Positions 180 to 50,298 of a DNA stretch of 50,298 nucleotides are shown here, piece after piece (within the stretch, counting starts at the first letter, position 1; each line of letters opens with the position of its first letter). The stretch lies in sequence record NC_041873.1; one strand, 5' to 3'. The stretch comes from Escherichia phage JMPW2. The notes under the pieces were generated by a model. It had not been told where the DNA came from. It worked only from the letters and a program-made list of their open reading frames with translations, and did not search any database. The position numbers were made by a program, and so were the translations under genes.

Positions 180-300
180 CGTATACAAAATTACGCCAAA
201 TTACGCCTTATAATATACATATAGATATATGTATATATATAATATATAAGTGTTTTTTTATTTATATATATAGATACTATTATTTGTAATATGGTTGTAT
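180..300. repeat. extremely AT-rich tract with TA-alternating palindrome
   Basis: tacatatagatatatgta inverted repeat and (TA)n runs. Confidence 0.8.
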
Positions 301-395
301 AGCGTGTCTTTTATGTTAATCGTTGGATGCTCTGATTATGATTCTCATGTTTATATATACAGTAGTTTTATCGGCGCACATTTATTTAGGGAAAT

Positions 396-422: not shown

Positions 423-536
423 ACACTTAAAATCGCCCCGCAGACCTTGACACATGCGGGTCGTCGTGTAACACTACGATTAGAGACACGGTGTTACATG
501 TTAATCATGGTGTATATTGAAACTAAGGAGAAAGCT

Positions 537-29769: not shown

Positions 29770-30458
29770 TGTCATACGGTGCTTTTATAGATGTAAACGG
29801 AAACCCATTCATAACCCCGTTATCCACGCCATTCGCCTTATATGCGAAAGGGGAAATTCAATCAGTAAAGGTTAGTGGTTCACAGGTTGCGGAGAGATAT
29901 GTTCGGATACCTACAGGTGTTCCGGTTATAGCTTTTTGCAAAACAACAAACACGCAGCAGGGGACCGCGCTTTCAGCCTTTACTTTCAGAAGCGGACCCA
30001 ATGTTGGAACTGTTTATATAAGGGGGACAAATCCAGCAAACCAATCATACACGCTAACATATTACATATTTGCCATATTTGAGCAGTCACTACCGAGCTG
30101 GGGTATGGCAATATGGGATGCGTCAGGAAAGCTAGTGCTGACAAATGAGACAAAAGTCCTTAGTGATTTGGTTACAATCGGCACTCCTGGGTACGCTGGC
30201 GGTGGGCTAAACATAGACGCAACACTCAGCGGAAGCTACGCAGTTGTCCCAACTATACTTGGCAACTATCAAATTGTTATCGGCAGATTGCCAACTGGGC
30301 AACCCATAATAGGAAACTCAACAGCAGGCAGTTCATGCAGATACAACGGGAGCACAACGAGAATAAATGCAGCAGCAACCACTGCGGCAGGTCGGATATT
30401 GAACACCACGAATAATGGAAATATTATAACAGCAATAAAAACGGCAGCATACGACTAA
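29769..30458 (+). CDS. hypothetical protein downstream of J (paralog 2, internal repeat)
   Basis: N-terminal motif recurs internally as WGMAIWDASGKLVL. Confidence 0.5.
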   Translation: MSYGAFIDVNGNPFITPLSTPFALYAKGEIQSVKVSGSQVAERYVRIPTGVPVIAFCKTTNTQQGTALSAFTFRSGPNVGTVYIRGTNPANQSYTLTYYIFAIFEQSLPSWGMAIWDASGKLVLTNETKVLSDLVTIGTPGYAGGGLNIDATLSGSYAVVPTILGNYQIVIGRLPTGQPIIGNSTAGSSCRYNGSTTRINAAATTAAGRILNTTNNGNIITAIKTAAYD

Positions 30459-30480
30459 GCCCCTTTCGGGGCTTTTCTTT
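30459..30480. terminator. terminator between convergent genes
   Basis: gcccc tttc ggggc hairpin with T-rich tail on + strand. Confidence 0.55.
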
Positions 30481-30707
30481 TACATCGAGCAATCGTGAGA
30501 CTTGAAGTTATTCTCTGATACGTAATGGAATGAGAATGGATACCCAGCACGTAACAGCATCTCATCACCGCGCATCTTTGATCCAAAAACGGAAACCGAG
30601 TACTCTGCGTCACCTGATTCATAAATCGCAGTACAAGTGCGCTCAGGCATCGATGAGCAACCAGTCAGGATGAATGCCGCAGCAATAATGGTGATTAATT
30701 TTTTCAT
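30480..30707 (-). CDS. small lipoprotein, Cor/Llp-like superinfection-exclusion candidate
   Basis: Signal peptide MKKLITIIAAAFILTGCSS with lipobox LTGC; sits after tail genes on opposite strand. Confidence 0.5.
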   Translation of the reverse strand: MKKLITIIAAAFILTGCSSMPERTCTAIYESGDAEYSVSVFGSKMRGDEMLLRAGYPFSFHYVSENNFKSHDCSM

Positions 30708-30780
30708 TTGCATGTCCTCGTCGTTAGTGTGATTGCATTGTATGTCGCATTTACTTTTATTGCAATAGCGCAATTACAAT

Positions 30781-31190
30781 TTTTTTTCGTGTAACGGGTG
30801 TCTATTTTTGTAACTGGAGATGGTGTTACAAAATCTACCCAATCCGAACGCAGGTAGATATGATAAAAACTCTATATAATATATATAGATAGATAATATT
30901 TAATTTTAGCTTTATATATATAATTATTGTTGTGTAACAGTTGTCTATCGTGTAACTGGTGATTTGATTGATTCGTCAAATTTCTATCATATATGTTCAA
31001 AATTTAATCAATATGGATTCTACTTGTAGCTATCCCTGTATTTCTAAGAAAAAGCGGTTACAAGTATTACACAGTAGACATCACATAAAAATAGACTTAA
31101 GCCATTGATTCCGTTAATGCTGGTTGTAACTTGAGCGATATAGACACGCTATTACACACCAATTACATGTATCCGATTGACTAAACGCTG
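30781..31190. repeat. AT-rich iteron-like cluster (GTGTAAC / TGTCTAT / GTAACTGG motifs)
   Basis: cGTGTAACgggTGTCTATttttGTAACTGG at ~30790 and GTGTAACagtTGTCTATcGTGTAACTGG at ~30935, with inverted copies near 31050 and 31130 and (TA)n tracts. Confidence 0.6.
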
Positions 31191-31235
31191 TTAATGGCTA
31201 TAATGGATTCATCGTAAACGAGGGAGATAAACGCA

Positions 31236-32350
31236 ATGTTCCAGGTGTTCACATCAAGTCAGCTTTCTAATGACGAGTATCATAGCAACGAAGGTTGGGC
31301 GGCAGAGTATGTAAGCGGTTCTAGCCTTGCAGAAATTTATCAGACTTGCCCGGCTAACTGGAGATTCAAGAAGAATGAGACAACGAAGGCGCTGGAGTTT
31401 GGTACTCAGTCGCATACCAACTTTGAGAGCCGAGATCTGTTTACTGCAACGTATGCACGTTGTCCGGCTCCGTCAGAGTTCAAGGATCTGATTACGTCAC
31501 AAGCCGCACTGGCTGCAAAATTAAAATCTTTCGGCCTGAAAGGTACATCCGGTAAGCAGTACCCGGACCTCATCAAGATGATGGTTGATTGCGGTGAAGA
31601 GCTAAACGTCCAATATCTGATCGAGTTGATTGCGGAAGCAGAGGCGCGCTCTGAAGGAAAGAAATTGGTTGACGCTGACAAATACGACGCTTGCATGAAG
31701 ATGAGAGCAATCCTTGAACAAAATCCTGATCACGAAGCGTGCATCAACAGTGAAACGGCGCAGCGTGAGATTTCAATCTTCGGTGAGATATCCGGCGTCA
31801 AGGTTAAGGTTCGACTTGACCATCTGGACTACAAAGAGAATGTTCCAGGTCGTGTCCTGACTGGTTATGATGAGAATGGAGATCCGGTATTCGAAGATGT
31901 TATTTTCCCTGAAGCACTGATGAGAATGGAGATCCGGTATTCGAAGATGTTATTTTCCCTGAAGCACTGATTATCACTGACTTCAAAACAACAATGAGCG
32001 CCAACCCGTTAGAGTTCCCGAGACTGGCATACAATCACGGGTATTATCTGAAAATGGCCTTGCAGCATGATCTGCTACGACGCGCAATCCAGGCTGGCGC
32101 TTTTGAAGGCAACTTCCCGGAATATATCCCGATCGTAGTTCGATTGCTGGCTCAGGAGAAAAAAGAGCCTTACATCGCACTTGCTTACCGTATGACTATG
32201 GAGCAAATCAGGATCGGTCGTAGCCAGTATGTTAGCGTAGTCCACACTTACAAGGCTTGCTCTGAAATGGATGTTTGGCCTGGGTACGCTGGCGACGCAA
32301 GCGAGATTGAACTTGAAACGCCATCATGGGTGCGTTACCAAAATAAGTAA
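31236..32350 (+). pseudogene. PD-(D/E)XK recombination exonuclease, frameshifted by 50-bp tandem duplication
   Basis: 31871..31920 and 31921..31970 are identical; removing one copy fuses ORFs 31236..31970 and 31994..32350 in frame and restores ...FPEALIITDFKTT... Confidence 0.6.
31871..31970 (+). repeat. perfect 50-bp direct tandem duplication (2 copies)
   Basis: tgagaatggagatccggtattcgaagatgttattttccctgaagcactga repeated exactly. Confidence 0.95.
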
Positions 32351-36210: not shown

Positions 36211-36230
36211 GTTTTAACTAAAAATGCTAT
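36211..36230 (-). promoter_or_regulatory. palindromic box variant
   Basis: gttttaactaaaaatgctat (reverse orientation). Confidence 0.45.
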
Positions 36231-36666
36231 TGGTCGTCCCGATATCTTCCTTCTTCACGACGCGCATAAATTTCTTGTTCTTGCATCGCTTCTCAAGGCA
36301 CTTGCCGTTACCGTCAAACTTCAGGTCGAATCGCAACCATGCGGCACGAAATCCTTTACACCCCTGTCGTCGGTAAGCACGATGCGCAGCTTCAGCACCT
36401 TGCCACGAAATCATGTTGCGTTCTTTCCAGCCTTGCACCGTCTGATTGCTAACCTTTAGAGCTTTTGCGCAGGCCGCAGGGCCACCATAATATTCGATAA
36501 GCGCATCAAGTCGCGCTCGCAATCCGGCGCGTGTTTCTTCTTTATGAATATAGAAGCCGCAGCGCTGTCGAGGCTTTTTATCTTTACCGCGTCGTGTTCC
36601 GTTGTTACCATTGATGTGACGTTTATCGATTTCACCAGTTGACTCTGCGATACGTTGAATACTCAT
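36214..36666 (-). CDS. HTH DNA-binding protein (putative regulator)
   Basis: XRE-like helix-turn-helix AKALKVSNQTVQGWKERN; basic N-terminus. Confidence 0.5.
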   Translation of the reverse strand: MSIQRIAESTGEIDKRHINGNNGTRRGKDKKPRQRCGFYIHKEETRAGLRARLDALIEYYGGPAACAKALKVSNQTVQGWKERNMISWQGAEAAHRAYRRQGCKGFRAAWLRFDLKFDGNGKCLEKRCKNKKFMRVVKKEDIGTTNSIFS

Positions 36667-36677
36667 CTTAATTCTCC

Positions 36678-36734
36678 TATAGCACTTTTTGCTAAAAACG
36701 TTTACTGTATGCCGTGTATTATAGCGTAAACGTT
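36678..36734 (+). promoter_or_regulatory. palindromic box plus stem-loop in divergent region upstream of helicase
   Basis: tatagcactttttgctaaaaac; hairpin aacgtttac...gtaaacgtt with TATTATAG loop. Confidence 0.55.
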
Positions 36735-36765
36735 ACAACGATTCAAAGGATTAATAGACGTGACA

Positions 36766-44751: not shown

Positions 44752-46320
44752 TTAACCCATCAGTCGAGGATTGATGAAAACAATATCATCAATCCGGCAA
44801 GTGTAGTTCATCTCTTCGAGCGTGATCAGCAGGCTGTCGATTCGCTCAGCTACTTTTTGTTGACCGTTGAACGGCGTAACGTTACGGCACTTTGCAACAA
44901 TGCTATGAATAGGTGCGCGACCTTTGTTCTTCTTTGCGATCTCAGTGATAACATCAATCAGCTTACGAGATTCAGCCTCATCACCAGCATACCCGGCGGC
45001 GCTGGCAGACGACAGATAGGTTCTGGAAAGCTCATTGAAAATCATGATCGCTTCCTGCATTGTTTCAAGGTCAATCTCACGGTTGGAACGGTTCGGTGAT
45101 TCACCATCCCAGTTCTTGATTGTGTGAAGAACTGAAGCAATGCGCAAAGCGTGCTTATCGAACTTGCCGAGATGACCGCGTAGCATTGAGTGAGAGTATT
45201 TGCCCCCGGCTGCGAAATCCGGCTCCATAGCCTGGCGAGCAAGGTTTAATTCACGCATAGCATTACGGCTTACAGAGAGAACAACGTTGTCCTCCTTCAT
45301 AATGTTGTGCACAAGTCGATAATATTTACTCACCAATCCTCGATCGACTTCCTTATACAGTGCATCACCATTTTCATCGCAAAGAATACGAGTGCCTAAA
45401 AGAGGTTCCTCGCGAACCAATAGGAAACGCTCAGATACACCGATACCGCGCTGGCCTGCGTCCATGATACCCTTGATTGTTTCATCCTGCGCAATGACGC
45501 AGATCGAACCGACCGGGCAAAGAGATAAGTTATTGTCCTGATTTGAACGCGCAACCTCCATATGGTTTTTATCCCACGCCTTGAGGATAAGCTCGCTGTT
45601 TGATTTCTTATCAGAACCGCCATAAGTCAGGCCAAGCAATGTATTTATTGCCGTTGCCTCATCAGAGATTACGGAAAAGTGGCCTTGAACAGCAGCTACT
45701 TTCGCAAGACCTTCCGGTGTAGGATCTGATACCGCGAAAACAATATCAGCCATCTTCTTGATCTTCTCTTCCAGTTTTTCCTTGTCCTCGTACAGCGCCG
45801 CCGTCGTGTTACCCTTCGGATCGTTTTTGATTTCCTTCTCGATCTGACGTAGCTGACTGGTTAAACGGATACGTTCCTTTTTGCGCTCTTCATTCAGTCT
45901 CTGAATCTCTGCGCGCATAGGTGTAATCGCCGCTGAGTTAATCGCGGATTTACCTGTTGATGGTGGCTGGCTAATCACCATATAAAGAGCGGTCGGTTGT
46001 TCTTCTCCGTGATATTGCACCCAAAACTTCCCTAGCATCGCGGCTGAGATGCACCCAATGAAATGAGCGTACGCAGACGAAACAGGAAACTGTACAGACT
46101 CAGCTTTTGCTTTTGCATATTCGAATACCAGGTTATCGCCACCTAACGAAATCAGCGGGAACTTATCGTTTCCACTGTTGATATCGATCGGGTCTTGCCA
46201 AAACGAAACTGAATCCCCGTAGCTGTTTTCACGAATTGCGATCGCCACCGGATTAACTCCAGTGCTATTTGCGATCTCAATAATCTGTTGGTAATTCAGT
46301 TTTGGCTTAATATTAAACAT
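44752..46320 (-). CDS. P-loop NTPase (DUF3987-like, replication-associated)
   Basis: Walker A-like PPSTGKS; start at internal ATG (MFNIKP) with SD aaggag. Confidence 0.55.
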   Translation of the reverse strand: MFNIKPKLNYQQIIEIANSTGVNPVAIAIRENSYGDSVSFWQDPIDINSGNDKFPLISLGGDNLVFEYAKAKAESVQFPVSSAYAHFIGCISAAMLGKFWVQYHGEEQPTALYMVISQPPSTGKSAINSAAITPMRAEIQRLNEERKKERIRLTSQLRQIEKEIKNDPKGNTTAALYEDKEKLEEKIKKMADIVFAVSDPTPEGLAKVAAVQGHFSVISDEATAINTLLGLTYGGSDKKSNSELILKAWDKNHMEVARSNQDNNLSLCPVGSICVIAQDETIKGIMDAGQRGIGVSERFLLVREEPLLGTRILCDENGDALYKEVDRGLVSKYYRLVHNIMKEDNVVLSVSRNAMRELNLARQAMEPDFAAGGKYSHSMLRGHLGKFDKHALRIASVLHTIKNWDGESPNRSNREIDLETMQEAIMIFNELSRTYLSSASAAGYAGDEAESRKLIDVITEIAKKNKGRAPIHSIVAKCRNVTPFNGQQKVAERIDSLLITLEEMNYTCRIDDIVFINPRLMG

Positions 46321-50213: not shown

Positions 50214-50298
50214 TCCAATAATTGCTCATTATTCCATCAATATCGGAATAGGTGGAATAATTCTGATTGCGATTGATTGCAAATGATGAAACGTGATT

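Follow-up and report, generated by a model that had tools for sequence, protein, structure and literature searches.

What is the function of the non-coding DNA that separates cor from recE in a T1-like phage? We addressed this question in Escherichia phage JMPW2 (sequence record NC_041873.1), a complete Tunavirus genome (T1-like, family Drexlerviridae) of 50,298 bp, which was analysed over its full length and is referred to below as the window. Positions 30708-31235 of the window lie between cor (30480-30707, minus strand) and a gene for a RecE-like exonuclease (start 31236), which is followed by erf and then by ssb. Between the promoters of cor and recE there are approximately 400 bp without an obvious role in simple transcription initiation. 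Here we describe in this stretch an array of short repeats on both sides of an AT-rich core, which is very probably a functional, protein-bound DNA element acting at two loci of the genome. Our preferred reading, to which we assign a probability of about one half, is that the element would serve as a replication origin composed of iterons and an unwinding element, and as such it is the best candidate so far for the T1-like family.

T1 belongs to the seven classical T phages, and phages related to it are often encountered both as therapeutic candidates and as laboratory contaminants. The papers on T1-like phages that we consulted report no identified replication origin, and searches of the library available to us for transcriptomes or for the mapping of the T1 origin returned nothing relevant. 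Origins that combine iterons with an unwinding element are a well-known kind; what is new is a first concrete origin candidate for this family.

Repeat array and AT-rich core between cor and recE

A first-pass annotation of the window had described about 460 bp of AT-rich, non-coding DNA with (TA)n tracts at this place, and the description holds: a (TA)n tract lies at approximately 30873-30924 and no coding signal is present. Among 120-bp windows of the genome, the one at 30854-30973 (GC 0.21) ranks second lowest, after 182-301 (0.17, the lowest) and before a next lowest value of 0.29. The same annotation had proposed repeated composite sites. Triplets built from TGTAAC and GTCTAT do occur on both strands, whereas GTAACTGG, which it had placed in both orientations, is present in two copies of one orientation.

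Enrichment of the motifs over composition-matched random sequence was borne out by first-order Markov resampling. Within 30774-31235 (462 bp) there are 7 of the 25 genome copies of TGTAAC/GTTACA (binomial p 2e-9), a number that 0 of 20,000 resamples reached, together with 4 of the 14 copies of GTCTAT/ATAGAC (binomial p 7e-6; 10 of 20,000 resamples). The longer forms GTGTAAC and TGTCTAT/ATAGACA each have 3 of their 5 genome copies in the same interval. When the TGTAAT variant is counted, the array comprises 11 A-type (TGTAAY) and 5 B-type (GTCTAY) sites. Approximately 14 sites form four helically phased triplets, in which neighbouring sites are spaced by 8-11 bp, i.e. about one helical turn. 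Two A-B-A triplets (TGTAAC-N4-GTCTAT-N2/3-TGTAAC) on the plus strand, at 30790-30814 and 30933-30956, point rightward and have the core between them; two rearranged triplets (B-A-A and A-A-B) on the minus strand, at 31057-31079 and 31140-31167, point leftward and lie to the right of the core. Single extra sites are found outside the triplets at 30773, 30825 and 31125, and the left cluster holds a perfect 9-bp inverted repeat, TTTTGTAAC/GTTACAAAA. The coordinates of these features and of those discussed below are collected in Table 1.

Table 1. Features of the repeat element, its second copy and associated genes in the window
Feature	Position	Strand	Description
Candidate cor promoter	30737..30765	-	weak sigma70-like TTGCAA-17-TACAAT, 9/12, consensus match only; points away from the element
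Left iteron cluster	30773..30830	both	TGTAAT(-) 30773, TGTAAC(+) 30790, GTCTAT(+) 30800, TGTAAC(+) 30809, TGTAAC(-) 30825
AT-rich core, putative DNA unwinding element	30863..30931	none	(TA)n and ATATATAGATAGATA; lowest 60-bp window GC 0.10
Central triplet	30933..30956	+	TGTAAC-N4-GTCTAT-N2-TGTAAC; invariant in 13 of 14 Tunavirus genomes
Invariant box	30957..30990	+	GGTGATTTGATTGATTCGTCAAATTTCTATCAT; contains GATTGATT, common to the genome ends; also described as GGTGATTTGATTGATTCG box
Inner right triplet	31057..31079	-	GTCTAC, TGTAAT, TGTAAC
Integration host factor (IHF) consensus, exact	31098..31110	-	AATCAATGGCTTA = WATCAANNNNTTR; one of 7 exact matches in the genome
Outer right cluster	31125..31167	both	TGTAAC(+) 31125, GTCTAT(-) 31140, TGTAAT(-) 31151, TGTAAT(-) 31162
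recE operon promoter	31177..31204	+	TTGACT-16-TATAAT, 11/12; best sigma70 match genome-wide
Paralogous AT core with A/B-like sites	205..312	+	TGTAAT 285, GTATAG 297, GTGTCT 304; from local alignment and low GC
Inverted pair	466..498	both	GTGTAACAC-N9-AGACAC-GG-TGTTACA (right half AGACACGGTGTTACA); upstream of the first early gene (start 537)
Candidate iteron-binding protein	36214..36666	-	150-aa Cro-fold helix-turn-helix (HTH) protein, first gene of the HTH-primase operon; predicted binder
HTH-primase operon promoter	36718..36759	-	TTGAAT-17-TATAAT, 10/12; TGTAAC in the spacer, GTCTAT just upstream of -35
DUF3987 helicase	44752-46320	-	AlphaFold predicted local distance difference test (pLDDT) 94; C-terminal winged helix

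Sequence diversity was calculated from 14 distinct Tunavirus sequences, with the third codon positions of recE as comparator. It was 0.066 for the whole region and 0.015 for 30864-30990, which covers the core, the central triplet and the box, against 0.207 at the recE third positions. Motif positions were less diverse than the remainder (0.041 vs 0.080; circular-shift p ~0.035), and 13-14 of the 16 sites are invariant in the 14 genomes, those of the left cluster being invariant or nearly so. The B site at 31091 lacks conservation and is unlikely to be genuine. A value of 0.015 was also obtained for the recE promoter, which the SA32RD record lists as such. In 63 phage records the identity of the region reaches at least 90%, including those in which the upstream gene encodes another lipoprotein. 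Taken together, these values indicate that the region is under strong purifying selection. A cruciform or hairpin in the core was considered and rejected, the single-stranded DNA folding no better than shuffled sequences (z +0.3 to -2.0).

T1 alone carries GTATAT for GTCTAT at both plus-strand B sites (30800 and 30943 of the window). The occurrence of the same C-to-A change in two copies suggests gene conversion or co-adaptation with the binding protein.

Second copy and counterparts in other Drexlerviridae

The first-pass annotation had also pointed to an inverted pair of the same elements upstream of the first early gene, and the pair is indeed present (Table 1). A stronger tie between the two loci, which it had not noted, is an alignable paralogous block (30873-30953 vs 218-307; local alignment z = 14 against shuffles). 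This left-end copy lies inside the 2.8-kb terminal repeat annotated in T1 and adjoins the region assigned to pac. Within Tunavirus it is 76-98% identical, and the focal copy 90-100%.

In six of six whole genomes (the window, IME347, grams, TLS, VAC7 and AHP42) the lineage's own repeat is found together with a TA core at a second locus. In five of the six, the second locus is the divergent early region close to where the genome conventionally begins, and in VAC7 it lies approximately 1 kb inside the early arm. The two loci of each genome align with one another, with z = 14, 18, 27, 17, 43 and 20 against shuffles. They also contain the two 120-bp windows of lowest GC in five genomes (the window, IME347, grams, VAC7 and AHP42), and the lowest and third lowest in TLS. 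One paper states that TLS has no such repeats; contrary to this statement, TLS carries the element twice. The earlier suggestion that one protein acts at both loci thus stands as far as an array with the same lineage motif is present at both in all six genomes, the identity of the binder being a matter of prediction. A pattern scan of IMG/VR with TTTGTCCNNGGACAAA for the second locus of one lineage was too unspecific to be informative.

With RecE homologues as markers of the equivalent locus, seven further Drexlerviridae genera were examined, and six of them have an analogous element of approximately 500 bp upstream of recE. Directly before recE, about 500 bp are non-coding in Badaguanvirus, Hanrivervirus, Warwickvirus, Tlsvirus (411 bp) and Webervirus, while in Rogunavirus the recE-side copy lies approximately 1.5 kb further upstream, before an anti-repressor gene. 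The upstream neighbour of the gap varies and may be cor, another lipoprotein gene, unrelated genes, the gene for tail protein J or that for primase. The element nevertheless stays beside replication and recombination genes, the order in Webervirus being HTH-primase-[element]-recE-erf-ssb.

Approximately 76 IMG/VR loci from Tunavirinae, Tempevirinae, Webervirus and Eclunavirus-like phages were then compared. The gap free of open reading frames (ORFs) mostly measures 460-530 bp, and the 100-bp window of lowest GC nearly always begins between about -320 and -450 relative to the recE start, in most cases at -355 to -405. Motifs of the core type are found again at -355 to -405 over the 76 loci; one of them, ATATA(T/C)AGATA, recurs across genera, and GGTGATTT-like boxes occur at the place of the invariant box at 30957-30990. 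The repeats themselves differ: TGTAAY/GTCTAY in Tunavirus, TGTAAT(C) in lineage L027, CGTGACA in IME347, GGTAAGAT/ATCTTACC in Webervirus (9 of the 16 genome copies of GGTAAGAT are in the element, p 1e-14), ATCCTCCGCAA in Ec_L1-like phages, ten copies of GGGACAAA in lineage L067 and GAACA-type repeats in Tempevirinae. Given as the distance from the recE start followed by the strand, the Tunavirus sites are at -446+, -427+, -411-, then the core, -303+, -285+, -179-, -170-, -111+, -85- and -74-, and those of Webervirus at -409+, -399+, -390-, then the core, -277+, -201-, -193-, -146+, -137- and -127-. In this comparison the positions and orientations of the sites are thus kept while the repeat sequence is swapped between lineages. 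Such a swap at kept positions implies a conserved nucleoprotein architecture, of which one sequence-specific component would co-evolve with the sites.

An exact IHF match is found at -138/-142 in 24 of the 76 loci and at approximately -320 to -355 in 13 more. The IHF consensus occurs at 0.87/kb in the element against 0.12/kb in the flanks (7-fold), and at the Tunavirus site variation is confined to the four N bases, the consensus bases being fixed. Searches for the element and for the HTH protein in plasmids and Escherichia coli genomes gave no match except one 49.6-kb 'plasmid' record, which is possibly a phage genome.

Candidate binding protein, replication proteins and function

The replication module of the window encodes a Zn-ribbon primase, an SF2 helicase, a DUF3987 helicase and a protein of 150 aa annotated as a transcriptional regulator, which is the candidate iteron-binding protein. 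Its predicted structure has pLDDT >90 for residues 38-140 and shows an all-alpha Cro-like domain, preceded by a basic arm that is disordered and followed by an extension at the C-terminus. The best matches of the model were the Cro proteins of Xfaso 1 and N15 (0.71-0.73 of the target at 2.2-2.8 Å), and the protein also hits the P22_Cro Pfam family. Within the conserved core, no segment varies more than the recognition helix (residues 74-83): each of nine iteron lineages has a different one, and 19 Webervirus loci with a common iteron all have the same. This variation fits a role of the HTH protein as the reader of the sites.

The DUF3987 helicase finds its best PDB matches in MCM subunits of eukaryotes and archaea (Foldseek E as low as 1e-6, template modelling score ~0.3-0.38), and some of its homologues are fused to a DnaG-type zinc finger, which supports it as the helicase partner of a primase. 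It was also considered as the iteron binder and rejected: in its C-terminal winged helix, the segment that would have to recognise DNA is acidic and does not change between lineages, which makes it an unlikely reader of variable sites. A word-indexed homologue search with the helicase C-terminus returned only two fragments. When replication proteins were compared across genera by windowed identity, none stood out by overall identity, and homologues of the O, Rep or alpha initiators were not detected.

On these grounds the following course of initiation is proposed. A phage-encoded, lineage-specific protein, most likely the Cro-fold HTH protein, would coat the sites, and host IHF would bend the DNA at its conserved consensus. 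Transcription away from the core, very strong from the recE promoter and weaker from that of cor, would add negative superhelical stress. The 60-70 bp core would melt, and loading of the primase of the phage and of its MCM-like DUF3987 helicase would follow. The second copy (~205-500) may work likewise, by analogy with oriL and oriR of SPP1.

The features of an iteron origin, namely repeated phased sites and an adjacent AT-rich unwinding element, are present by sequence. An origin is favoured because many short phased sites flank the most meltable DNA of the genome on both sides, with an IHF site among them, and because the linkage to replication and recombination genes survives rearrangements. 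It is favoured further by sites that are lineage-specific, as in initiator-iteron systems, by the presence of two copies, as in SPP1, and by the position of the core between promoters that transcribe away from it. In a fuller and more tentative form of this reading, enterobacterial Drexlerviridae would possess two paralogous intergenic origins, at which a Cro-fold initiator and IHF load the primase and the DUF3987 helicase, and whose specificity would have been exchanged repeatedly within a fixed site geometry; this combination is undescribed for any bacterial virus.

Several points weigh against an origin. The Cro fold of the candidate protein is typical of transcriptional repressors and not of known initiators, and the covariation of its recognition helix with the iterons is confounded with phylogeny. 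Both loci coincide with the few good sigma70 promoters of these genomes, as would be expected of early-promoter control regions. The core is conserved almost absolutely, beyond what simple meltability requires. The region holds no GATC site where about 2 are expected and no exact DnaA box; GC skew follows the direction of transcription and is uninformative on an origin. Finally, in a distant T1-like phage of Vibrio the gap before recE is missing.

The first-pass annotation had left the choice between a replication origin and a multi-operator region, and both remain the leading readings; the architecture favours an origin, and the comparative data do not decide. As a Cro-type operator hub, the array would allow the HTH protein to tune or shut off immediate-early sigma70 transcription at both loci, with IHF-assisted looping between the site clusters; we regard this reading as possible rather than probable. 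The fold and the Pfam match of the candidate binder agree with this, as do the two paralogous arrays of lineage-specific sequence, which resemble immunity-specific OL and OR. The recE promoter, which is the best sigma70 match of the genome, and the cor candidate each have a cluster of sites directly upstream, and a paper on TLS lists only three intergenic sigma70-like promoters, of which P51 heads the unit of Gp51 (exodeoxyribonuclease). The iterons at the HTH-primase promoter, with TGTAAC in its spacer, suggest autoregulation by the iteron-binding protein; as a general feature, however, iterons in the promoter of the HTH gene had to be rejected, since they were seen in Tunavirus only and in none of the other genera. 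The layout fits an operator less well. No site overlaps the -35 or -10 hexamer of recE, the nearest ending 9 bp upstream of -35, and most sites are 170-460 bp upstream. They are asymmetric units of 6-7 bp in direct triplets and not palindromes of 14-18 bp. TLS and Webervirus keep the left cluster without needing a divergent promoter, some lineages have an ATAGCAC-type recE promoter and yet the same array, and a strictly conserved core of 10-20% GC is left unexplained. The two roles are not mutually exclusive.

Two further explanations were weighed. A packaging or recombination site, read by the small terminase subunit (pac-like) or acting as a RecE/Erf recombination or resolution signal, is improbable. 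It would suit the left-end paralogue, which is a few hundred bp from the pac-defined end and inside the 2.8-kb terminal repeat, as well as the occurrence of GATTGATT at the genome ends and in the focal region and the position of the focal element next to recE-erf-ssb; lambda cosB likewise combines repeated terminase sites with an IHF site. Yet 30.7 kb separate the focal copy from the pac end and 21 kb separate it from terS, T1 packaging has been described from a single pac region, and such a signal needs no AT-rich core as its most conserved part. The focal copy is moreover better conserved than the pac-proximal one, at 90-100% against 76-98% identity. Very unlikely is an oriC-type origin in which the TGTGTAAY repeats are degenerate boxes for host DnaA. 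There are four one-mismatch matches to TTWTNCACA in 528 bp, against about 1 expected, but every one of them needs its mismatch and overlaps iterons, they are not kept as DnaA boxes in T1, and a GATC cluster is lacking. Unrelated repeats (GGTAAGAT, ATCCTCCGCAA, GGGACAAA) occupy the same positions in phages of the same or closely related hosts, and this swapping of the site sequence across lineages rules out a conserved host protein as the binder.

Among the nearest known parallels to a replication origin of this kind is Bacillus phage SPP1, a virulent pac-type siphovirus with two similarly organised origins, each consisting of direct repeats accompanied by an AT-rich unwinding element, to both of which one phage initiator binds (PMC6316719). 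Its AT-rich islands are the strongest compositional outliers, and one origin lies in a replication and recombination cluster encoding exonuclease, annealase and SSB (PMC6316719). The likeness thus extends to the two copies, the repeats with their AT element and the setting among recombination genes, the function being demonstrated for SPP1 and proposed from sequence here. There are differences: oriL is located inside initiator gene 38, whereas both copies here are intergenic, and neither gp38, the initiator, nor gp40, a DnaB-type helicase, is related to the Cro-fold candidate or to the SF2 and MCM-like (DUF3987) helicases of the window.

With lambdoid and iteron-plasmid origins (ori-lambda/O, R6K, pSC101, P4 ori/crr) the element shares several short repeats, which serve there as initiator sites, beside an AT-rich region. 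In iteron replicons the iteron sequence differs between relatives and matches the initiator, IHF sites and transcriptional activation are common, and P4 has two separate iteron regions. The lambda origin, however, consists of four iterons of 18-19 bp inside the O gene, whereas here approximately 14 sites, each 6-7 bp long and grouped into direct and inverted triplets, extend over 400 bp on both sides of the core. Lambda OL and OR resemble the two loci as paralogous, lineage-specific arrays at early promoters that are read by a Cro-fold HTH protein (a recognition predicted here), but they are formed by 17-bp pseudo-palindromes that overlap -35 and -10, three per region, and have no AT-rich core. 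In herpes simplex virus (HSV), oriS and oriL have an AT-rich centre with inverted initiator sites, lie between divergent genes and occur in several paralogous copies. HSV likewise has genes for an SF2 helicase, an SSB and an alkaline exonuclease, and its initiator UL9 is the SF2 helicase. As HSV is a eukaryotic virus this is an analogy only, and nothing in the sequence points to the SF2 helicase of the phage as a binder of the sites.

With its defined length of about 450 bp, its explicit sites, a candidate binder and a second copy, the element makes the origin question experimentally tractable, and it suggests an unusual set of proteins, with a Cro-fold reader and an MCM-like helicase. The exchange of site sequences at fixed positions offers a natural system for studying the co-evolution of an initiator (or regulator) and its DNA sites. 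Practical uses would lie in the engineering of T1-like phages, in replicons or amplification cassettes, and in annotation.

Genome setting and further observations

The window is identical to IMG/VR contig UViG_2974570372. Its genome is mosaic. The left end (1-540) is 97.6% identical to T1 and approximately 77% to vB_EcoS_SH2, and in the cor-recE region the relation is reversed, positions 30400-31600 being 100% identical to vB_EcoS_SH2 and 92% to T1. In the recE-like gene an exact 50-bp tandem duplication at 31868-31967 causes a frameshift, which splits the gene into 31236-31970 and 31994-32350. In SH2 and T1 recE is intact (1065 nt), and the duplication in the window reflects either genuine inactivation by mutation or an error of assembly.

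An ORF of 46 aa inside the element (30968-31108, plus strand) corresponds to the hypothetical protein CPTT1_049 of the updated T1 record (AY216660, 30110-30250). It is open in all 14 Tunavirus sequences. Its diversity by codon position is 0.065, 0.092 and 0.096, which is without periodicity, while that of recE is 0.020, 0.003 and 0.207; since the variation has no codon-position bias, the ORF is probably not a gene. A small ORF at 30872-31000 (minus strand) likewise has no codon-position pattern and was rejected as a gene together with it. A search of Rfam with the region gave 0 matches at E <= 1.

Another motif, ATAGCAC-N4/5-TG(C/T)TAAAA, is abundant in the genome; it contains a TAGCA-N5-TGCTA palindrome and is followed approximately 22 nt later by TATAGT. 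More than 25 sites were counted, for example at 1445, 2466, 5300, 7487, 35134, 36677, 39185 and 42188, with reverse-complement copies at 102, 16029, 19791, 46376, 49429 and 50196. The motif is present in most intergenic gaps, oriented along the direction of transcription, and absent from the focal region. In contrast to the iterons it is kept across genera, and it corresponds to a 21-nt repeat without known function that was reported in TLS, T1, Rtp and Rogue1 (PMC11447400).

Short tandem motifs are also found at the genome ends (20-60, 121-145, 396-425 and 50255-50285), with GATTACGATTACGATTGATTGCG, three copies of GATTAACAC and GATTGCGATTGATTGC. The two ends are contiguous on the circular map and near pac, and GATTGATT occurs once in the focal region as well (30966). 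These tandem motifs may be recognition repeats of the terminase.

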